DNA of 60,058 nt from an uncultured Bacilli bacterium. Its GTDB lineage: Bacteria; Bacillota_I; Bacilli_A; RF39; UBA660. The position numbers and the translations under genes were made by a program. Below the pieces are notes generated by a model. It was not told the origin of the DNA. It did not search any database and was given only the letters and a program-made list of their open reading frames with translations. The stretch spans positions 1 to 60,058 of the forward strand of contig CANQBF010000001.1 in the NCBI GenBank assembly GCA_947588895.1, in the 5' to 3' direction. This document shows positions 5,752-39,374 of the stretch, piece by piece; within the stretch, counting starts at the first letter, position 1; each line of letters begins with the position of its first letter.

Positions 5752-7671
5752 TTGCGTATAATAAAATGGTTATATAAATTATTTAGCTTTTGTGTTTTTA
5801 CCTTTATTATTGGTTATATAGGGATTAATATTTATGCTTTAATTACTCCTAAATTAAATATTACTAATAATGGTACTTATTATTTATATGATAATAAAGA
5901 TAATTTAGTATATCAAGGAAGTAGTACAAGTAAATGGGTTAATTTAGAAGATATAAGTAGTAATTTAACTAATGCTGTTATATCTATTGAAGATAAAAAA
6001 TTTTATGAACATCATGGATTTGATATTCTTAGAATTGTTAAAGCAATGAGTAATAATATTAAAAATGGACATATTGTTCAAGGAGCTTCAACGATTACAC
6101 AACAATTAGTTAAAAATTTATATTTAGATTTTGATACTAGTTGGAAAAGAAAAATTAAAGAAGCTTTTTTAACAATAATTGTAGAAATACAATATGATAA
6201 AGATGAAATTTTAGAAGCATATTTAAATACAATTAATTATGGTAATGGTAACTATGGAGTTAGTAATGCTTCAATGTATTATTTTAATAAAGATGTTAAA
6301 GATTTAAATATAGAAGAAGCAATTATTTTAGCTGGTATTCCCAAGAGTCCTAATAAATTTAATCCAGTTTCTAATAAAGAAGAATCTTTAAAAAGGTCAA
6401 GAGTTGTTGCAGCATCTTTATTAAATAATAAATTTATAACTAAAGATGAATATGATAATTTAAATTTAGAAGAAGTTCCTATTTATGGTAAAGTTAATGA
6501 ACAACATTTACAAATGCTTATGTATTATCAAGATGCTGTTTATCATGAGTTAGAAAGTTTAGGAATTAGTAAAAGTGCTTTAGAAAAAGGAATGCTTAAA
6601 ATATATACTAATTTAGATATGGATAAACAAAAAGCTTTAGAAGAAAAAATTTTACTAAATATGGAAGGGGAAAAAGAAATGCAAGTATCTAGTATTATTG
6701 TTGACCCTGAAACAGGTAAAATTGAAGCTTTAACGGGTGGTATTGATTATGGTATTAGTGAATATAATAGAGCTATTTCATCTAAAAGACAAGTTGGCTC
6801 TACGATGAAATCTTTTTTATATTATGCTGCTTTAGAAAATAATTTGGTTTCATCTAGTTTATTTAAAAGCGAATTTACTATTTTTAATACTTCCGATAAA
6901 CAAACATATGCACCAATTAATTATGGTAATAAATACGCTAATAAAGATATAACTATGGCTGCTGCTATTGCATTTTCAGATAATATATATGCTGTTAAAA
7001 CAAATTTATTTTTAGGTAGTGATGAATTAGTTAAAACTGCTAAAAGAGCTGGAATTAAAGAAGATTTACCTTCTATTCCATCACTTGCTTTAGGTACTAA
7101 AGAAATAAATATCATTGATTATGCCACTGGTTATGCAACACTGGCAAGTGGTGGTTATCAAAAAGATTTATATTTTATAAGAAAAATAGAAGATAGTAAT
7201 AATAATGTTATTTATATTAAAGATGAACAAAAAAAATTAGTTCTTAATCCCAATTATGTTTATATTTTAAATGAATTATTAAGTAATACTTCTAATTCAA
7301 TTTTTAAAGATTATACTGTGGCAACAGCTTCGACTATTGCTTCAAAATTAAGCCGTAAATACGCAATTAAAACAGGAACAACAGCAACAGACCATTGGGC
7401 AGTTGGATATAATAAAGATGATTTAATGTTAGTATGGATTGGTTATGATGATAATCGGGAATTAGAAAAAAATTATAGTTATATTACTAAAAATATTTGG
7501 GCTGATACAATGGAAACAATTCAAAAAGATTATACTGATAATTGGTATGATACTCCCAAAGATGTAGTAGGTGTAATACTTGATGCTATTACAGGAAAAC
7601 CAACGAATGATGCTAGTAAAGCTTCTATTTTCTATTATTTAAAAGGAAGTGAACCAATAATAAGTAATTAA
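5752..7671 (+). CDS. Class A penicillin-binding protein (GT51 transglycosylase + transpeptidase)
   Basis: 639 aa with an N-terminal TM helix. GT51 motifs: EDKKFYEHHGFD and GASTITQQL. Transpeptidase motifs: STMKS (SxxK), SDN and KTGTT. It has a TTG start 6 nt after AGGTGA. Confidence 0.92.
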   Translation: MRIIKWLYKLFSFCVFTFIIGYIGINIYALITPKLNITNNGTYYLYDNKDNLVYQGSSTSKWVNLEDISSNLTNAVISIEDKKFYEHHGFDILRIVKAMSNNIKNGHIVQGASTITQQLVKNLYLDFDTSWKRKIKEAFLTIIVEIQYDKDEILEAYLNTINYGNGNYGVSNASMYYFNKDVKDLNIEEAIILAGIPKSPNKFNPVSNKEESLKRSRVVAASLLNNKFITKDEYDNLNLEEVPIYGKVNEQHLQMLMYYQDAVYHELESLGISKSALEKGMLKIYTNLDMDKQKALEEKILLNMEGEKEMQVSSIIVDPETGKIEALTGGIDYGISEYNRAISSKRQVGSTMKSFLYYAALENNLVSSSLFKSEFTIFNTSDKQTYAPINYGNKYANKDITMAAAIAFSDNIYAVKTNLFLGSDELVKTAKRAGIKEDLPSIPSLALGTKEINIIDYATGYATLASGGYQKDLYFIRKIEDSNNNVIYIKDEQKKLVLNPNYVYILNELLSNTSNSIFKDYTVATASTIASKLSRKYAIKTGTTATDHWAVGYNKDDLMLVWIGYDDNRELEKNYSYITKNIWADTMETIQKDYTDNWYDTPKDVVGVILDAITGKPTNDASKASIFYYLKGSEPIISN

Positions 7672-7680
7672 AAAAGATTG

Positions 7681-9219
7681 CTACTCTTCTTCTTCGCAAT
7701 CTTCTTTTTTTATAATTATTGTATATTTTAATTCTTTTGTGTCATCTTCTTCTGTAAATATTGTTGAATAATTGTATTCTCTTAATTCTTTCTTTAATTT
7801 ATCAAATAATTCAAATGCTTTATCCATATCATAATTTTTTTCTTCATTGTTTTTTTCAGTTTTATCATTTATTTCTTTTTCTTCTTCATCATCATTTGAT
7901 TCTTCTGGTATTTCTTCATTTTCGGTAATAGTCGTTTCTATTTTTTCATCTTCATGAGAATTATCATCCTCAACTTTTTCAATTAATCCTAAGTTAGCTA
8001 AAGCTTCTTCAACTGACATCTCACCAGAGTTAGAACTATTATCATTATTTATTGGCTCTACACTTGGTATTACATTATTTATAATTTCATCTGGTGATGG
8101 AGAACTTAATCCTACTTCAGGAATTACTGGGCTAATATCAGGTACAGCAACAGGTTCAGCAATTACTGGTGGTTTTTCCGGTATATAATTTAACATTTCA
8201 ATCGAATCATTAAAACCAGTAGCTTTTTTCTTTCTTTCTACTTTCATATTAGCTTGTTCATCTTCTAAGAAATTGAAAAATTTATTAGGAATTGGTTTTT
8301 CTTCAATACCTAAATCTATTGTATTTGAATTATTTATAGGTTCTATATTAGTTGGAGATTCAACATTGTTATTTACTACATCTATATTAACTGGTGGTTC
8401 AACTAAATTATTGTTTATTACATCTAAATTTGTTGGTTGTTCTACCACATTATTATTAACAGTATCTAAATTAGTAATAGTTGGTGGTTCAAGTGACATA
8501 CCAACTAAATCAGGAATACTATTTGTGGGAACATTATTAACATTATTATTTTCCATAACATTATTTAATTCAACTGGTGGTTCCATAACATCATTAACTT
8601 TTGGTTCTTCTTTTTTAGTTAAACCTTTTAATCTATTATCTAATTCTTTAACAGTAATTCTTTCATCTAAAATAACTTTTAACCAATTATTTTGTTCTTC
8701 TTCCGTTTTTAATTGAAGCAAACTACGAGCATGTCTTTCGGAAATTTTACCTTCCATTAAAGCATCTTTTACGCTTTCTGATAAAGATAATAATCTTAAT
8801 TTGTTAGCTACAGCTGATTGACTTAATCCCATTTTTTTAGCTAATTCTTCTTGAGTCATACCTTTACTTAATAAGGTTTCATAAGAACGAGCTTCTTCAA
8901 TCGGATTTAAATCTTTTCTTTGAATATTTTCCACAATAGCTACTTCAGCACTTTGCTTATCATCCATTTCAGTTATTATTGCAGGTACGGAAGTAAGACC
9001 GGCCATTTTCGCAGCTTTATATCTTCTTTCGCCAGCAATTATTTCGTACTTTTCTCCTATCTTTCTAACGACTAAAGGCTGAATAATACCATGTTCTTTA
9101 ATTGATAAAGATAATTCATTTAATGCACTTTCATCAAACTTCAAACGAGGTTGAAAACGATTAGGAATAACATCTTCAATTGGTAAATTTAAAACTTGCG
9201 AATTTGTATTCACACTCAT
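7681..9219 (-). CDS. noc: ParB-family protein of the Noc (nucleoid occlusion) type, with a long internal low-complexity repeat insertion and an acidic region
   Basis: 512 aa with the ParB N-domain (IPNRFQPR, GIIQPLVVRK, IIAGERRYKAAK). The HTH region QSAVANKLRLLSLSESVKDALMEGKISERHARSL resembles my recollection of B. subtilis Noc (QSTIANKLRLLKLP..ITERHARAL), not Spo0J (RPHIANHLRLLTLP..LSMGHGRTL). The gene lies directly downstream of rsmG, the position noc occupies in Bacillus. An in-frame stop 4 codons upstream of the ATG rules out an N-terminal extension. Confidence 0.8.
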   Translation of the reverse strand: MSVNTNSQVLNLPIEDVIPNRFQPRLKFDESALNELSLSIKEHGIIQPLVVRKIGEKYEIIAGERRYKAAKMAGLTSVPAIITEMDDKQSAEVAIVENIQRKDLNPIEEARSYETLLSKGMTQEELAKKMGLSQSAVANKLRLLSLSESVKDALMEGKISERHARSLLQLKTEEEQNNWLKVILDERITVKELDNRLKGLTKKEEPKVNDVMEPPVELNNVMENNNVNNVPTNSIPDLVGMSLEPPTITNLDTVNNNVVEQPTNLDVINNNLVEPPVNIDVVNNNVESPTNIEPINNSNTIDLGIEEKPIPNKFFNFLEDEQANMKVERKKKATGFNDSIEMLNYIPEKPPVIAEPVAVPDISPVIPEVGLSSPSPDEIINNVIPSVEPINNDNSSNSGEMSVEEALANLGLIEKVEDDNSHEDEKIETTITENEEIPEESNDDEEEKEINDKTEKNNEEKNYDMDKAFELFDKLKKELREYNYSTIFTEEDDTKELKYTIIIKKEDCEEEE

Positions 9220-9261: not shown

Positions 9262-9969
9262 TTATTTTACAAGTGGCTTTTTTAAAATTTTATCATAATT
9301 TCTTAAATCTTCTTTTTTAAAATTTGCATAATTTTTTATACAAATTATATTTCTAATACCTTCATCTTTATATAAATTAAAAGTTATAATATTTTCAATA
9401 CGACAATTTAAATAATTAATGGTCTTTTTAGCTTCTTCTAATTCTTTTTCAATATTACCTTTCATACTAATAAATAAACCATCTTTTTTAACTAAAGGAA
9501 TAGCTAATTCACATAGTATTCTTAAATTAGCTACTGCTCTTCCAGTTACTACATCAAATTTATTTAAATTATCTTTAGCATAATCTTCTACTCTAGCATT
9601 AACAATATTAAATTCTATATTTAATTTTTGAGCTAAACTTTCTAAAAATTTTGTTTTCTTATTATTAGAATCAATTAATGTTACATTAAGATGGGGAAAA
9701 AATATTTTTATTACCATTCCTGGTAAACCGGCGCCACTTCCAATATCAAGCAAATTATTAATATTATTAAAATTAATAATTTTTACAATAGTTAAAGAAT
9801 CATAAAAATGTTTTAAATAAATATCATTATCATCAATAATTCTAGTTAAATTAGTATGAGTATTATATTCTTTTAAATATTCTTTATATATTTCTAATTT
9901 ATCTAACATAGCAGTATCATAATTTATTTTTAACTCATCTAAAGCTTTAATAAATTCTTCTTTAGTCAT
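9262..9969 (-). CDS. rsmG: 16S rRNA (guanine527-N7)-methyltransferase RsmG (GidB)
   Basis: 235 aa with the SAM motif LLDIGSGAGLPG. It overlaps the end of mnmG by 8 nt, which is the canonical position. Confidence 0.93.
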   Translation of the reverse strand: MTKEEFIKALDELKINYDTAMLDKLEIYKEYLKEYNTHTNLTRIIDDNDIYLKHFYDSLTIVKIINFNNINNLLDIGSGAGLPGMVIKIFFPHLNVTLIDSNNKKTKFLESLAQKLNIEFNIVNARVEDYAKDNLNKFDVVTGRAVANLRILCELAIPLVKKDGLFISMKGNIEKELEEAKKTINYLNCRIENIITFNLYKDEGIRNIICIKNYANFKKEDLRNYDKILKKPLVK

Positions 9970-13252: not shown

Positions 13253-13789
13253 TTATAATTTAATTATTTCTCTATTTCTTACTAAATTATTTTTACTTTT
13301 AGTTTTTATATCTTCTATCATCTGATATATTATATCTATATTATGTTCTTCATTGAATTTAGAAATATCTACATTAAAATTTTCTAACGTTCCATTTTGT
13401 AAATCAAACTTCGATACACTTAATTCTTTAATATTAAGTAAATCTTCTGTAGCATTAATTTCAAATTGATATAAAATATCACCCTCTATATATTTCACAC
13501 CAAATTTAGGAAATAAACCACTTTCTATAGTTACATGTTCATTTTTAAACATAAAATTTAATGAACAACAATATTTTTCTCTAAACCAAGAAGTTACATT
13601 ACAATTATCAAAATATAAATAAACATATATATTATGGTAATCATCATATTTTAATTCAATATTTTTTAAATTATAATCATCTTTTAAAAAAAATGATAAA
13701 TATAAATTTAAATTATAATTAATCATTTCTTTATAATCATCGTATTTTAAATTATCATTTATATAATTTTTTAATTTTTCTAAATACAT
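13253..13789 (-). CDS. Hypothetical cytoplasmic protein (178 aa)
   Basis: A long ORF with no motif I recognise. It is co-oriented with 13801..14484 and separated from it by 11 nt. Confidence 0.6.
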   Translation of the reverse strand: MYLEKLKNYINDNLKYDDYKEMINYNLNLYLSFFLKDDYNLKNIELKYDDYHNIYVYLYFDNCNVTSWFREKYCCSLNFMFKNEHVTIESGLFPKFGVKYIEGDILYQFEINATEDLLNIKELSVSKFDLQNGTLENFNVDISKFNEEHNIDIIYQMIEDIKTKSKNNLVRNREIIKL

Positions 13790-13800
13790 AACTAATCCTT

Positions 13801-14484
13801 TTAATATTTTTTTAATTTTAATTTAATTTCATCAAAATTATTATTTAACTTATTATCAAATGTTTCTATATTCATAATATTTTGATTAATAGCATTATCT
13901 CTAGCATTTAATATATTTGAAACTTCTTCAATATTCGTTTGTTCTTGATTTAATAAGTTTTGTATTTCTTCTTTTAAAGATTCTATATTAGTTAATTTTT
14001 GTTCTTTTTTTATTGTTAAAGATTTAATATCATCATCAATAGTTTTTAACATATCTTCTAATTCTTCTTTAGTATAATCGCTATCTATAAATTTCTTTTT
14101 ACAAAGATAATAACCTGGAATAGTAGCTGCTAAGAAAACTAATTGAAGAAGTAAACTCAAAAATAAAATTTCTTTTAAAGACACTAGGCTTTCAGATAAT
14201 ATAACTCCGATAAGATTAACAAATATTAATCCACCAACAAATGCAAAAGCATGAACTATTAATAAAACTTCAACTAATTTTTTATGATTTTTTTTATAAT
14301 TTTTTAATTTAGATAGTTTATTATTTATTCTTTCTCTATCATTTTTTGTTTCTATTAATTCACTATCTATTATATTAATTTTATTTTCTTCATCTTTTAT
14401 ATTTTTTTCAATTTCTCTAACTCTTTTTAAGTTATCTATATTTTCCTCTAATATATCTATACTTAATTTTGTATAATTATCCAT
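13801..14484 (-). CDS. Hypothetical membrane protein: coiled-coil, 2-TM hairpin, coiled-coil
   Basis: 227 aa with heptad-like K/E/N-rich flanks and two central hydrophobic helices (LVEVLLIVHAFAFVGGLIFVNLIGVIL and ILFLSLLLQLVFLAATIPGYYL). Confidence 0.6.
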   Translation of the reverse strand: MDNYTKLSIDILEENIDNLKRVREIEKNIKDEENKINIIDSELIETKNDRERINNKLSKLKNYKKNHKKLVEVLLIVHAFAFVGGLIFVNLIGVILSESLVSLKEILFLSLLLQLVFLAATIPGYYLCKKKFIDSDYTKEELEDMLKTIDDDIKSLTIKKEQKLTNIESLKEEIQNLLNQEQTNIEEVSNILNARDNAINQNIMNIETFDNKLNNNFDEIKLKLKKY

Positions 14485-17074: not shown

Positions 17075-18439
17075 ATGGAAACGCACGAATTTTTCAAACA
17101 ATTTTTAACATTAATTAGTGAAAAAGTAAGTTCGGGCTCTTATTCGGTTTGGTTTAGTAATTTAAAAATATTACAAATAACTGATAAAGAAATTATTATT
17201 CAAGTTCCACTTCAAGCTCACAAAACAATGTTAAAACAACAATATATGGATATTATAGATGATGTTACTATTTCACTTTTAGGTAAAGAATATGAATATA
17301 TATTTTTAACTGAAGATGAAGCGAATGATAGTGATATACTTCATAACAAAAAAAATGAAGAAACAAATATAACTAAAGAAAAAGAACAAGAATGGGAAAC
17401 AAACTTAGATCCTTCAATGAATTTTGATAATTTTATTATTGGAGAATCTAATAGGTTAGCTTTTGTTGCAGCGATGGATGTTGCTCAATCTCCATGTACA
17501 ATTAATAATCCCTTATTTATATATGGAAGAAGTGGCATTGGTAAAACCCATTTAATGTATGCAATAGGTAATTATATTCATGAACATTCTGATAAAAAGG
17601 TTTTATATACAACTAGTAATGATTTTAGAGATGATTATGTTGAAATTTCGAAAAAAGAAAAAGGTAAAGAAGTATTAGAATACGCTAATAATTTTAAAAA
17701 TAAATATCGAAATGTTGATGTACTTATAATTGATGATATTCAGTTTTTAGTAGGAAATGAGGGAACACAACAAGAATTTTTCCATACTTTTGAAGCATTA
17801 CATAAAGCTAATAAACAAATAATTATATCAAGTGATAGAAGTCCTGATGATTTAAAGAAAATCGAAGATAGACTTAGAAGTAGATTTACAATGGGCCTAC
17901 CTGTTGATATTTATCCACCTGATTTCACACTTAGATGTGATATCATAAAGCAACATTTAGAAAATACTAGTATTAAAAATAAAGTTAATAAAGATGTTAT
18001 TGAATATATTGCTAATGCTTGTCCAAATGATATAAGACATATTATTGGTACAATAAGAAGATTACTAGCTTATACAGCAATGATGCGACCTCAGGTAATT
18101 AATTTAGATTTTGCAGTTGAAGCTTTAAAAGACTATATAACTGTTAATATTTATCAAGAAAATACAATATCGCATATTCAAAAAGTAGTTGCTGATTTTT
18201 TCAAGATAACAGTTGAAGATTTAAAAAGTAAAAAGAGAAGTAATAATATTGCTTGGCCAAGACATATAGCAATGTATTTATGTCGAGCTGAAACGGAGGA
18301 AAATCTAGCTAAAATCGGCTTTGAATTTGGTGGTAGAGACCATTCAACTGTCGTTGCAAGTTGTGATAAAATCAAAAGTGAGTTAATAACTAATGAAACT
18401 TTAAATGATACAATTAAAGAAATAAAAGCTAAGTTATAA
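17075..18439 (+). CDS. dnaA: Chromosomal replication initiator protein DnaA
   Basis: 454 aa with Walker A (GRSGIGKTHL), Walker B (LIIDDIQFL) and a C-terminal DNA-binding domain (GGRDHSTV). Confidence 0.97.
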   Translation: METHEFFKQFLTLISEKVSSGSYSVWFSNLKILQITDKEIIIQVPLQAHKTMLKQQYMDIIDDVTISLLGKEYEYIFLTEDEANDSDILHNKKNEETNITKEKEQEWETNLDPSMNFDNFIIGESNRLAFVAAMDVAQSPCTINNPLFIYGRSGIGKTHLMYAIGNYIHEHSDKKVLYTTSNDFRDDYVEISKKEKGKEVLEYANNFKNKYRNVDVLIIDDIQFLVGNEGTQQEFFHTFEALHKANKQIIISSDRSPDDLKKIEDRLRSRFTMGLPVDIYPPDFTLRCDIIKQHLENTSIKNKVNKDVIEYIANACPNDIRHIIGTIRRLLAYTAMMRPQVINLDFAVEALKDYITVNIYQENTISHIQKVVADFFKITVEDLKSKKRSNNIAWPRHIAMYLCRAETEENLAKIGFEFGGRDHSTVVASCDKIKSELITNETLNDTIKEIKAKL

Positions 18440-19708: not shown

Positions 19709-19782
19709 AATTTTATAAGATAATTAGACAAAATTTTTAAGTTTAGTGTGCTATAGTAGACCATAAATTTTTGGAGGAAAGT

Positions 19783-20235
19783 ATGGAAAATTATATAATA
19801 AATGAAAATACTGTAGCAATTTTAAAAAAATATAATGAAATTATTATTTATAATGTTGATAAAGAAGAAGTTTTCAACACGAAAATTAAAAAAATTATTA
19901 ATACAAGTTGTTTAGTATATGGAAGTAATCTTTTAGGAAGAAAAGAATATGCTAAAAAATATTTAAATATTAAATATAAAGTACCAATTATAATATCTGA
20001 GAATAAAAATATTATTTTGTTACAAATAAATAATTTTCGGGATGAAGAATGTTTATGTATTGTGGGAAATAAAATATTAAATTATCAAGAAAAAGATAAT
20101 AAATTAATAATAAAATGTATAAATAATCAAGAATTTTCCACAAATATATCTAAGTATAGTTTTGAAAAAATACTTTTAAATTATTTAAAATTAAATAATT
20201 ATATTAATTATCAAAATAGTTTGAAATTTCTTTAA
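19783..20235 (+). CDS. ComK-family protein (competence transcription factor-like)
   Basis: By eye it matches ComK hallmarks: NTVAIL.., IINTSCLVYGSNLLGRK (compare IVDRSCRFFGSSYAGRK), KVPIIISENKNIILL, and C-x-I after a short gap. I set the start at the ATG at 19783, 5 nt after GGAGG; the ORF track uses the TTG at 19771. Confidence 0.65.
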   Translation: MENYIINENTVAILKKYNEIIIYNVDKEEVFNTKIKKIINTSCLVYGSNLLGRKEYAKKYLNIKYKVPIIISENKNIILLQINNFRDEECLCIVGNKILNYQEKDNKLIIKCINNQEFSTNISKYSFEKILLNYLKLNNYINYQNSLKFL

Positions 20236-25904: not shown

Positions 25905-25926
25905 TAAAAATAATCAACTTTTTTTA
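25898..25926 (+). terminator. Intrinsic terminator after gyrA
   Basis: The hairpin AAGTTGAT-AAAAATA-ATCAACTT is followed by TTTTT. The gyrA stop codon lies in the stem. Confidence 0.7.
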
Positions 25927-25932
25927 TGAATT

Positions 25933-25950
25933 TTATTTCCCGGGAAATAA
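25933..25950. promoter_or_regulatory. Perfect Noc-binding-site (NBS) palindrome
   Basis: TTATTTCCCGGGAAATAA is an 18-bp perfect palindrome. Its core, ATTTCCCGGGAAAT (25935..25948), equals the B. subtilis NBS consensus as I recall it. Confidence 0.7.
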
Positions 25951-26023
25951 TTGGTTTACATAATATTATAATAAACACAAATATATGTTCGTGTAGTATT
26001 TTAAAGTTATTTAAAATTATGTT

Positions 26024-26049
26024 TTAAATGTTTCACGTGAAACATTTAA
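26024..26049. promoter_or_regulatory. parS site 1 (perfect consensus)
   Basis: The core TGTTTCACGTGAAACA lies at 26029..26044 inside a 26-bp perfect palindrome. Confidence 0.85.
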
Positions 26050-26208
26050 CATTTAATAGATTAAGCAAATGTAAAAATTTGTTATATATAGTCTATTTAA
26101 AATTCAAACATGATTATTGATTGCATAATAAATATTTAAAAATTCAATTAATATTAAATGATTTTGAAACGTTTTAAAATTTTTATAAATATTTTTCAAA
26201 AAAATTTC

Positions 26209-26228
26209 AATGTTTCACGTGAAACATT
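26209..26228. promoter_or_regulatory. parS site 2 (perfect consensus)
   Basis: The core TGTTTCACGTGAAACA lies at 26211..26226 inside a 20-bp perfect palindrome. Confidence 0.85.
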
Positions 26229-26382
26229 ATTTAAGTTCATTATTTTAATGTCCTAAATATTAACAATTAATTATAAATAAATAATATATCTTATAAATTA
26301 TATAATAAATTGTAATTATTCAATGTTATATGAATAGCTTTGATACTTTATACATTTAATTGTTTTTAAAAAATAAAACAAC

Positions 26383-26402
26383 TATGTTTCACGTGAAACA
26401 TA
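26383..26402. promoter_or_regulatory. parS site 3 (perfect consensus)
   Basis: The core TGTTTCACGTGAAACA lies at 26385..26400 inside a 20-bp perfect palindrome. Confidence 0.85.
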
Positions 26403-26410
26403 TAAGAAAT

Positions 26411-26440
26411 TTGACAAAGAAAAAAGTAATATGATAACAT
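26411..26440 (+). promoter_or_regulatory. Sigma-A-type promoter for the SRP RNA
   Basis: TTGACA (26411..26416), an 18-nt spacer, then the extended -10 TGATAACAT (-10 hexamer at 26435..26440). The predicted TSS is near 26447. Confidence 0.5.
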
Positions 26441-26446
26441 TAATAT

Positions 26447-26527
26447 GCACAACAAATATATTGTAACCTGGTCAGAGTTGGAAGACAGCAGCCACATCAA
26501 TCCCTATTTGTGTGTGCTTTTTTTTAT
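26447..26527 (+). ncRNA. ffs: Small (4.5S-like) signal recognition particle RNA
   Basis: It contains the conserved SRP domain IV: CCUGGUCAG-AGUU-GGAA-GAC-AGCAGCC (compare E. coli GGUCAGGUCCGGAAGGAAGCAGCC). The closing helix pairs GCACAACAAAUA with UAUUUGUGUGUGC and is followed by a U-run. It sits next to tadA-dnaX, where scr is found in Bacillus. Confidence 0.75.
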
Positions 26528-26539
26528 AGGAGAAAAAAG

Positions 26540-38534: not shown

Positions 38535-38745
38535 ACTTAATTAACGGGGAATAAGTATTATAATTAGGAAATATTATAGAGAGTTAATGGTTGGTGGAAA
38601 TTAATATAGGAACTAATTAGGTATGGACTTAGGAGTTAAAGCGCATGATGAGCGTTATGCATTAAAGTGTATGATTAATTCATAAATAAAGGTGGTACCA
38701 CGGGTTATCTCGTCCTTTACCTTATTTATGAATTTTTATTTTTAG
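38535..38745 (+). promoter_or_regulatory. T-box riboswitch leader, probable Met (AUG) specifier
   Basis: The T-box sequence AAAGGTGGTACCACGGG lies at about 38687..38704. A terminator (TTCATAAATAAAGGT / ACCTTATTTATGAA followed by TTTTTATTTTT) competes with it. Stem I folds by hand as follows: base helix TAAGT/ACTTA; a specifier loop with AUUA on the 5-prime side and GGUAUGG on the 3-prime side, with AUG at 38623..38625; a 7-bp helix TAATTAG/CTAATTA; a GAGAG bulge (AG bay); and a distal loop GGUUGGUGGAA. Confidence 0.8.
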
Positions 38746-38753
38746 GAGGCAAG

Positions 38754-39374
38754 ATGTTAAAAGCTATTATATTTGATTTAGATAATACTTTAATTGATTG
38801 GGATTTAATTTATCTTAAACAATTAGAATTAGTATTAAAAGATTATAATTTTTCTAAAGAAACTATATTAAAAATAGATGATATATTAGGTATGCATACA
38901 ACGATTGATGAAACCCTTAATATAAATAAGCTTGTAGATTATATTAATGCTAAGTTAAATTTAAATTTGCCAGCTGAATTTCTAATTCAATTAAGTATAG
39001 CACAACAAGATTGCTATAAAGATAATCCTGAAGTGAATGATGTAATAAAATATTTAGCTTCTAAATATGATTTATATGTTTTAAGTAATTGGTTTACTGA
39101 AACGCAAAAGGGAAGATTAAAAAATATGGGAATATTAAAGTATTTTAAAGAAGTTATTGGAGGAGACCAAAATTATTATAAACCGGATAAAAGAGCTTAT
39201 CAGTTTATCTTAGAAAAATATAAACCTAATGAATGCCTTTTTATTGGTGATGATATAGAAAAAGATATTATACCAGCTTTAGAATTGGGGATGCAGGCTA
39301 TATGGAAAAATAATGAAAAATCTAATAATTATCAAACCATAAATGAAATAAAAGAATTAAAAAGAATATTATAA
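38754..39374 (+). CDS. HAD-superfamily hydrolase
   Basis: 206 aa with motif I (IIFDLDNTLIDW), motif II (SN) and motif IV (GDDIEKD). Confidence 0.85.
   Translation: MLKAIIFDLDNTLIDWDLIYLKQLELVLKDYNFSKETILKIDDILGMHTTIDETLNINKLVDYINAKLNLNLPAEFLIQLSIAQQDCYKDNPEVNDVIKYLASKYDLYVLSNWFTETQKGRLKNMGILKYFKEVIGGDQNYYKPDKRAYQFILEKYKPNECLFIGDDIEKDIIPALELGMQAIWKNNEKSNNYQTINEIKELKRIL

Follow-up and report, generated by a model that had tools for sequence, protein, structure and literature searches.

Noc, the nucleoid occlusion protein, is a tether between DNA and membrane that stops division over the chromosome. An uncultured Bacilli bacterium of the RF39 lineage encodes a relative of Noc that is built on a different plan. 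Its gene, here called noc-like, lies on contig CANQBF010000001.1 of GenBank assembly GCA_947588895.1; the complete contig (60,058 bp, about 24% G+C) was analyzed and is referred to below as the window. The encoded protein is probably a member of the Noc clade, specific for the Noc-binding site (NBS), in which a disordered linker bears conserved short motifs, rather than a dual binder of NBS and parS. An earlier inspection of the same DNA, made without database searches (below, the sequence-only reading), had noticed an orphan Noc-type ParB paralog with a truncated N-terminus and a repeat-rich insertion. That observation is confirmed, with small corrections. It had also taken the protein for a peculiarity of one genome; instead, the architecture, the Q-K-[S/N/T]-R residues and the gene neighborhood are common to a very large family. 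Judged by its sequences, this family is a large, previously unreported branch of Noc in uncultured, low-GC gut Bacilli.

Specificity residues and the extent of the family

DNA specificity within the ParB/Noc superfamily turns on four positions in the recognition region of the helix-turn-helix (HTH) domain. In an HMMER alignment to Geobacillus Noc (PDB 7NG0; the structure 7NFU was also aligned), residues Q134, K140, S145 and R162 of the window protein pair with the Q/K/K/R of Noc, positions that are R/T/A/G in Caulobacter ParB. The assignment of Q, K, S and R to these positions, originally made by eye, is thereby upheld. Its interpretation as an intermediate or permissive state is not. Published mutagenesis, in which the four positions are numbered 173, 179, 184 and 201, found that Q173 and R201 together switch specificity, Q173 reading adenine 1 of NBS and R201 reading cytosine 6, and that NBS binding is licensed by one lysine alone, at either 179 or 184 (Jalal et al. 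2020, PMC7383237). That study's deep mutational scan showed R173 to be invariant among parS binders and position 184 to tolerate any residue; variants of dual specificity mostly had T or S at 201 (PMC7383237). The QKSR combination itself is not listed in the supplementary text of PMC7383237. The window protein has one of the permissive lysines (K140) where canonical Noc has both. Because the two decisive residues are present and a single lysine suffices, QKSR is predicted to bind NBS only, rather than to represent an intermediate.

A protein database search yielded 119 close homologs, 319-449 aa long and every one from uncultured Bacilli. An exhaustive search with residues 1-205 against 1.84 billion cluster representatives added 149 further representatives of 50%-identity clusters, 242-982 aa long and 50-73% identical to the query region. 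The family total is above 260 homologs, 242-982 aa in length and all with a short N-terminus: nearly all have about 16 residues before PNRFQPR, versus about 38 in Bacillus subtilis Noc. The 512 aa of the window protein, which had seemed unusual, fall inside this range. Pattern matching finds Q-K-x-R in the HTH of 234 of 269 sequences; of the other 35, three differ at the second position (L, R or T) and 32 gave no match to the pattern. The third position is S in 122 of the 269, N in 71, T in 24, A in eight and K in only one. These natural Q-K-[S/N/T/A]-R variants can be compared directly with the published deep mutational scan.

Species-representative genomes with the gene are deposited as metagenome-assembled genomes labeled "Bacilli," "Tenericutes," "Mollicutes" or "Mycoplasma sp."; further carriers are Ca. 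Onthocola, Ca. Ventrenecus, Ca. Coprovivens, CAG:605 and CAG:460, and NCBI places the named genera in Bacilli incertae sedis. Related loci numbered 160 (2.2 Mb), 80 from GTDB species genomes and 80 from metagenome contigs. Gene order was compared in 78: rsmG, on the same strand, is the immediate upstream neighbor in 60 of these, and a convergent penicillin-binding protein (PBP) gene directly downstream in 46. It had been proposed that a divergently oriented PBP gene takes the place of the usual soj-spo0J pair. A PBP gene does adjoin the noc-like gene and soj-spo0J is not beside it, but the two neighbors are convergent, and given the counts above the arrangement is clade-wide and not peculiar to this genome.

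Placement with Noc rather than Spo0J

Five independent lines place the family with Noc: the switching residues, the C-terminal domain, the tree, the excess of Noc model score over generic ParB score, and the presence of canonical NBS sites. The C-terminal domain of the family matches that of canonical Noc over 48 columns (hhalign probability 97.9%, E = 3.4e-13) and has no profile similarity to that of Spo0J (hhalign probability 0.07%). A neighbor-joining tree was built from 196 columns of the N-terminal and DNA-binding domains for 76 sequences (49 from the family, 21 canonical Noc, four Firmicute Spo0J, Thermus ParB and Myxococcus ParB). The split that separates the family plus canonical Noc from Spo0J and other ParB is found in 189 of 200 bootstraps (94.5%), the family is monophyletic in 188 of 200, and canonical Noc in all 200. 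The alignment and phylogeny that the sequence-only reading had proposed as a check on its Noc-type assignment thus group the protein with Noc and not within Spo0J.

Model scores need some care. The window protein matches the Noc model TIGR04285 over model positions 1-201 of 255 with 272.9 bits, and five other family members score 271-292, as against 373 for B. subtilis Noc. Raw score was rejected as a classifier, as two Spo0J proteins also reach 231-258 bits. The TIGR04285 score less the score for the generic ParB model TIGR00180 is more informative: the excess is +89 to +106 bits for six family members, about +30 for the two Spo0J proteins, and +154 for B. subtilis Noc.

Several observations count against a simple assignment to Noc. 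The score of 272.9 bits is below the curated cut-off of TIGR04285 (315 bits). The N-terminal amphipathic helix, a formal criterion for Noc, is absent from the window protein. Core identity to canonical Noc is 45-49%, barely above the 42-47% seen with ParB proteins. The tree is by neighbor joining only, includes six ParB sequences, and draws its canonical Noc solely from Bacillaceae. Because both the N-terminal helix and the score cut-off fail, the protein is best described as a Noc variant with a rearranged architecture and not as a plain member of the Noc family.

Binding sites and the probable reader of parS

One NBS (TATTTCCCGGGAAATA) and three parS sites (TGTTTCACGTGAAACA), which the sequence-only reading had placed side by side at 25.9-26.4 kb, are indeed there, and all four are perfect. 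They share a 534-bp gap between gyrA and the signal recognition particle (SRP) RNA gene (25905-26438) and lie within 470 bp of one another, with parS spacings of 182 and 174 bp. The NBS is only 79 bp from the first parS, and the parS sites are embedded in 48-nt direct repeats, 69-75% identical. Abutting a centromere cluster as it does, the NBS could serve to separate one kind of sliding clamp from another.

The identical perfect 16-mer of NBS occurs in 47 copies in 32 of the 160 related loci (48 copies with the window included). Across the 1.33 Mb formed by the window and the first 80 loci, the 12-mer core of NBS is never seen outside the full 16-mer, and there are zero copies of two NBS/parS hybrids and zero of four control palindromes. 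Two places account for most NBS of the relatives, the gap between khpB and mnmE and the mnmE-mnmG junction, which are 4-8 kb away from dnaA; the window has none at either. Measured from the start of the noc-like gene, recurrent places are about 2.7 and 4.1 kb upstream (L047, L065, L134, L135 and others). The co-occurrence of canonical NBS sites with the QK[S/N/T]R family is the strongest indication available that these proteins would bind NBS.

The proximity of the two kinds of site had suggested that one protein might serve both. A single ParB/Noc of relaxed specificity would then act on the NBS and the three parS, soj-spo0J having been lost and segregation and occlusion merged. The gene content of the window agrees with such an arrangement. 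The noc-like gene is, as had been stated, the only ParB-family gene present: all six frames lack both a further GERR motif and the deviant Walker A motif of ParA (KGGxGK[ST]), and phmmer with Soj and Spo0J queries returns nothing from the window beyond the noc-like open reading frame (ORF). The absence of soj-spo0J from this origin-proximal contig of 60 kb is thereby borne out. The short distance between the sites and the S in place of K at position 184 fit the same arrangement. So does the failure to find ParA or a second ParB within 10 kb in 157 of the 160 related loci, which also tells against the separate parS reader preferred here; no parS was seen in those 157 loci, but the loci stop short of the region that holds parS in the window. 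That the source genome has such a separate reader is something we infer from its parS sites and from its relatives. Published tables of soj, spo0J or parB presence were not found in a paper on the gene content of RF39, RFN20 and ML615J-28.

Nevertheless, one protein for both sites is very unlikely. The window protein has both Q173 and R201, where parS binders keep R173 invariant and dual binders mostly have T or S at 201; the substitution at 184 loses its force where any residue fits (PMC7383237). The sites are pure NBS or pure parS, with zero hybrids, and the protein has no N-terminal peptide of the kind that stimulates ParA. Relatives with the same QKSR protein also encode the canonical pair. 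In L070, L074 and L079, a canonical Soj and an adjoining Spo0J are encoded, both about 8 kb from the Noc-like gene of the family. These Spo0J have the LGKGL N-terminal peptide and an HTH of R..G type. That of L079 ("UMGS610") reads KALGKGLEELF and has soj adjacent; with it as query, all 120 matches listed were at least 98% identical and came from one very common gut species with a genome of about 1.15 Mb. Most likely, the genome encodes a separate canonical ParB outside the window, and that protein reads the parS sites. A reader of parS is to be expected, because three perfect 16-bp palindromes in a gap of 24% G+C would not persist otherwise, and the noc-like protein is unlikely to be that reader because its Q and R argue against it.

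Folded domains and a disordered linker with conserved motifs

Pfam assigns ParB_N to residues 8-100 (E = 7e-35) and HTH_ParB to residues 102-199. In 108 family members the cytidine triphosphate (CTP) motif residues G63-E64-R65-R66 and E97, N98, Q100 and R101 are invariant. An AlphaFold2 (AF2) model of the window protein, built from a 108-sequence alignment, shows these domains and a small C-terminal domain (helix 466-481, strands 485-492 and 497-504) as confidently folded, with a disordered linker between them (Table 1). The model of a 334-aa relative gives the same picture, linker disordered. At the N-terminus, only nine residues (MSVNTNSQV) precede LNLPIEDV. The sequence-only reading had counted 11 and had correctly placed an in-frame stop (TAA) four codons upstream of the ATG. 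This stop, together with rsmG 42 nt away, rules out a longer N-terminus.

Acidic residues outnumber basic ones in the linker, 56 to 14, and N, E, P and V are abundant. A long insertion with degenerate repeats followed by an acidic stretch had been described, with structure prediction suggested as a test of whether it is disordered. All of this stands: there are five degenerate repeats, an acidic tract at residues 417-462, and a predicted local distance difference test (pLDDT) score of 40-58 throughout. Linker length is highly variable across the family. The linkers of P0243 (982 aa), P0253 (821 aa) and P0150 (647 aa) are several hundred residues longer than that of the window protein.

Is the insertion real? 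Tandem repeats of low complexity do occur in it (Tandem Repeats Finder reports a period of 42 nt, 2.3-2.6 copies and 72-75% matches), and either an error of repeat assembly or a decaying pseudogene could be imagined. Repeats only 72-75% identical at the DNA level are, however, too diverged for mis-assembly, and all 512 codons are open, the frame continuing through motifs M1 and M2 (below) into the conserved, confidently folded C-terminal domain. Many independent assemblies contain homologs whose linkers are as long or longer. An artefact is for these reasons extremely unlikely.

Alignments show that family linkers consist of conserved short motifs separated by stretches of variable length. The first, M0, reads D[IV]PLVxxxPxI[ED]xIKxxAxDI, and the repeats of the window protein occupy its columns in the family alignment; from these sequences, the five repeats look like a local amplification of M0. 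The second, M1, has the consensus PNKFFN[F/Y]LEDExANM and is intact in the window protein. Its residues F315, N316, L318 and E319 are invariant in 108 of 108 sequences, and P311, N312, K313, F314, D320, E321, N324 and M325 are conserved in at least 90% of them. The third, M2, has the family consensus EEIEMLDF and is degenerate here. Some subfamilies (e.g. L022-L024, L029, L035, L047 and L051) have a second KFF motif, NPNNKFFTP, plus FDPMSLL, before the C-terminal domain.

M1 as a candidate relocated membrane helix

The sequence-only reading had concluded that the membrane-targeting helix that defines Noc is missing. This is true of the N-terminus, but conserved inside the linker is M1 (PNKFFNFLEDEQANM), a motif similar to the membrane helix of canonical Noc (RFFNFGEKEQEEM). 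Across 120 Bacillaceae sequences, canonical Noc begins MKHPFSRFF[G/S/N][L/F]GEKEQEEM, in which RFFNFGEKEQEEM is comparable to the KFFNFLEDEQANM of M1. A scoring matrix made from canonical Noc positions 4-19 was scanned without gaps over 261 family linkers; 69 score above the 99th percentile of composition-matched shuffles, and every match is M1 in register. Comparison by hhalign of the M1-M2 segment with the canonical Noc N-terminus covers 22 columns at 45% identity (P = 0.0045; 7 of 300 column-shuffled controls, empirical P = 0.023), pairing KFFNfLEDE with RfFglGEKe and the EEI that begins M2 with the EEV that precedes the first strand. A short hidden Markov model (HMM) of the canonical helix, run over family linkers, gave best scores of 1-6 bits, overlapping those of shuffles, and has too little power. 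The segment IPNKFFNFLED has a hydrophobic moment of 0.59, versus 0.43-0.49 for the Noc helix, and is the sole strongly amphipathic segment of the linker. The tripeptide [KR]FF occurs in the linkers of 73 of 141 cluster representatives, where 3.5 would be expected, and full M1 can be recognized in 56 of the 78 proteins at species level and in 46 of 146 cluster representatives.

What is known of the B. subtilis helix bears on this comparison. F5, F8 and F9 are each required, membrane binding is weak by design, and an unrelated amphipathic helix can substitute (PMC4331003). In apo Noc the helix and the acidic helix that follows it are packed against the N-terminal domain, and their release is attributed to CTP (PMC8429893).

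From these sequence comparisons, M1 may be the displaced membrane helix of Noc, the anchor having been relocated into the linker, although we rate this somewhat short of probable. A fuller version, a shade more tentative, would have the whole module (the amphipathic helix with its acidic second helix, together with what may be a remnant of the start of the first strand) moved to M1 and M2 and not lost. Four points detract from relocation. The similarity of M1 to the helix is modest (hhalign homology probability 7.7%, empirical P about 0.02). Among the 50%-cluster representatives, no more than about one in three has full M1. In the AF2 models of two family members, M1 is neither folded as a helix nor docked on the N-terminal domain (pLDDT 54-58). 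M1 is net acidic, and acidic residues follow the motif. None of the Noc-like proteins of L070, L074 and L079, the loci with soj-spo0J nearby, has a clear M1. (In its place these proteins have NPNVYTQT[E/D/K]N[V/K/I]DF[V/I]NI, as does that of L078, a 4-kb locus.)

Membrane binding could instead have been truly lost, with M0, M1, M2, NPNNKFFTP and FDPMSLL serving to dock partners, so that the NBS-bound clamp becomes a hub for recruiting proteins. Candidate partners would be components of the divisome, of replication initiation, or of SMC. Several distinct conserved short motifs in a disordered linker are typical of linear motifs that bind proteins, the failure of AF2 to make M1 helical fits, and the acidic residues that flank M1 would disfavor anionic membranes; the clustering of NBS 4-8 kb from dnaA in the relatives points the same way. 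The Noc of Staphylococcus aureus reportedly controls replication initiation, to go by the title of a paper. On the other hand, M1 is similar, and in register, to the Noc membrane helix with its acidic follower, and in hydrophobic moment it does not fall short of that helix. The canonical helix, too, is followed by acidic residues (GEKEQEE) and binds membrane weakly by design (PMC4331003). No partner protein is known, and M1 was not found in non-ParB ORFs of the window and first 80 loci. Docking in place of membrane binding is the chief alternative to relocation, and we regard it as rather unlikely.

Gene neighborhood and features of the window

The window spans a replication origin, with a sign change of GC skew at about 16-17 kb and dnaA at 17075. 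The order on the minus strand is rnpA, yidC, khpB, two ORFs without a Pfam match, mnmE, mnmG, rsmG and the noc-like ORF; the noc-like gene follows rsmG directly, as had been seen from the DNA. Coordinates of the features discussed are collected in Table 1.

Table 1. Features of the noc-like gene, its protein product and the associated sites in the window
Feature	Position (nt)	Strand	Remarks
Class A PBP gene	5752..7671	+	Pfam Transgly + Transpeptidase; convergent (tail to tail) with noc-like gene
noc-like gene	7681..9219	-	512 aa, ATG start; sole ParB-family ORF in window
Noc-type C-terminal dimerization domain	7696..7833	-	residues ~463-508; one helix then two strands; pLDDT 81-94
Acidic tract	7834..7971	-	residues 417-462, before C-terminal domain
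Disordered linker	7840..8604	-	residues 206-460 (~255); AF2 pLDDT 40-58
Motif M2, degenerate SIEMLNY	8185..8205	-	residues 339-345
Motif M1, PIPNKFFNFLEDEQANM	8245..8295	-	residues 309-325; intact; candidate relocated membrane-targeting helix
Five degenerate repeats, E-P-P-x-x-N-x-D-x-V-N-N-N-x-V	8329..8583	-	11-16 aa; residues 213-225 and 244-297
CTP-binding N-terminal domain + HTH DNA-binding domain	8605..9198	-	residues 8-205; Pfam, AF2 pLDDT >90
Recognition region, four specificity residues	8725..8829	-	Q134, K140, S145 in GLSQSAVANKLRLLSL, R162 in SERHAR
ENIQR motif	8917-8931	-	within N-terminal domain
GERR motif	9022-9033	-	within N-terminal domain
rsmG	9262..9969	-	Pfam GidB; directly upstream of noc-like gene, conserved neighbor
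NBS, perfect 16 bp	25934..25949	.	predicted target of noc-like protein
Three parS sites, perfect 16 bp	26029, 26211, 26385 (26029..26400)	.	predicted target of canonical ParB encoded outside window

The two ORFs without a Pfam match (178 and 227 aa) occupy window positions 13253-14484 (-) and separate khpB from mnmE. Four relatives that were examined have khpB next to mnmE, with NBS in the gap; the window seems to carry an insertion of 1.2 kb there. An antisense ORF of 147 aa (8273-8716, +) lies wholly within the repeat region that encodes the linker and is probably a by-product of biased composition. Elsewhere, a ComK-family ORF (PF06338, E = 4e-20) lies between dnaN and recF (19771-20235, +), the small SRP RNA (52 bits; 26439-26528, +) comes directly after the parS cluster, and a T-box leader (100 bits; 38538-38720, +) is found upstream of an ORF at 38754.

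Proposed mechanism and comparison with known systems

The protein would nucleate on canonical NBS through Q134 and R162 of its HTH, with K140 permissive. By analogy to other ParB and Noc proteins it would then bind CTP through its intact GERR and ENxQR motifs and close into a sliding clamp, and it would dimerize through a C-terminal domain of predicted Noc type. We infer these three steps (NBS nucleation, CTP clamp, dimerization) from sequence, from the published mutagenesis, and from the presence of NBS. Should M1 be the membrane helix with its acidic follower, which is conceivable but not quite probable, the bridge from DNA to membrane would be kept, by way of a tether within the linker.

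What is new here is a set of conserved short motifs, including the anchor-like M1, inside the linker of a whole family; relocation of the anchor is possible. To our knowledge, no protein other than Noc uses CTP to switch its membrane binding, and the current model of that switch needs the membrane helix at the N-terminus, packed on the CTP-binding domain and freed when CTP drives engagement of that domain. With predicted NBS recognition, the CTP motifs and the C-terminal domain of Noc retained but no N-terminal helix, the family offers a ready-made test of the positional dependence of the switch. If the helix does reside in the linker, membrane binding would be uncoupled from the CTP gate or re-coupled to it in a new way, and a variable linker with multiple motifs (one of them five-fold here) would set the reach and the valency of the tether. 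The family extends Noc well beyond the Bacillales-type sequences used for its definition, into widespread uncultured gut bacteria of small genome size, where it is now annotated generically as "ParB/RepB/Spo0J."

Compared with Spo0J and other ParB (B. subtilis 6SDK and 5NOC; Thermus 1VZ0), the protein has the same fold of the N-terminal and DNA-binding domains and the same CTP motifs, with the core identity of 42-47% given above. It differs in its HTH, where Q and R replace the invariant R173 and the G201 of ParB, in lacking the LG[KR]GL ParA-stimulating peptide and an adjacent ParA, and in a C-terminal domain unrelated by profile.

A functional analogy, and only that, may be drawn to the membrane helices of MinD and FtsA. 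Those too are short amphipathic segments ([KR]-x-F-F or L-F) on a flexible tether, weak in affinity per copy and effective through multimerization. Their helices are C-terminal, while M1 is internal, with disorder on both sides and acidic residues after it, and its membrane role is putative.

The closest comparison is to Noc itself (B. subtilis and Geobacillus thermoleovorans; 7OL9, 7NFU, 7NG0, 6Y93; TIGR04285). The window protein differs from it in lacking the N-terminal amphipathic helix, acidic second helix and loop, so that nine residues precede the first strand in place of about 28; in having S (N or T in relatives) and not K at position 184; and in replacing the short basic KPKPRRK linker of Noc with a disordered acidic linker of about 255 residues that bears motifs, among them a look-alike of the helix. 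It scores below the TIGR04285 cut-off and has no soj-spo0J adjacent. In common with Noc it has the CTP-binding domain with GERR and ENxQR, Q173, K179 and R201 of the HTH, a Noc-type C-terminal domain, a gene directly after rsmG, the perfect canonical 16-bp NBS, and a sister grouping in the tree.

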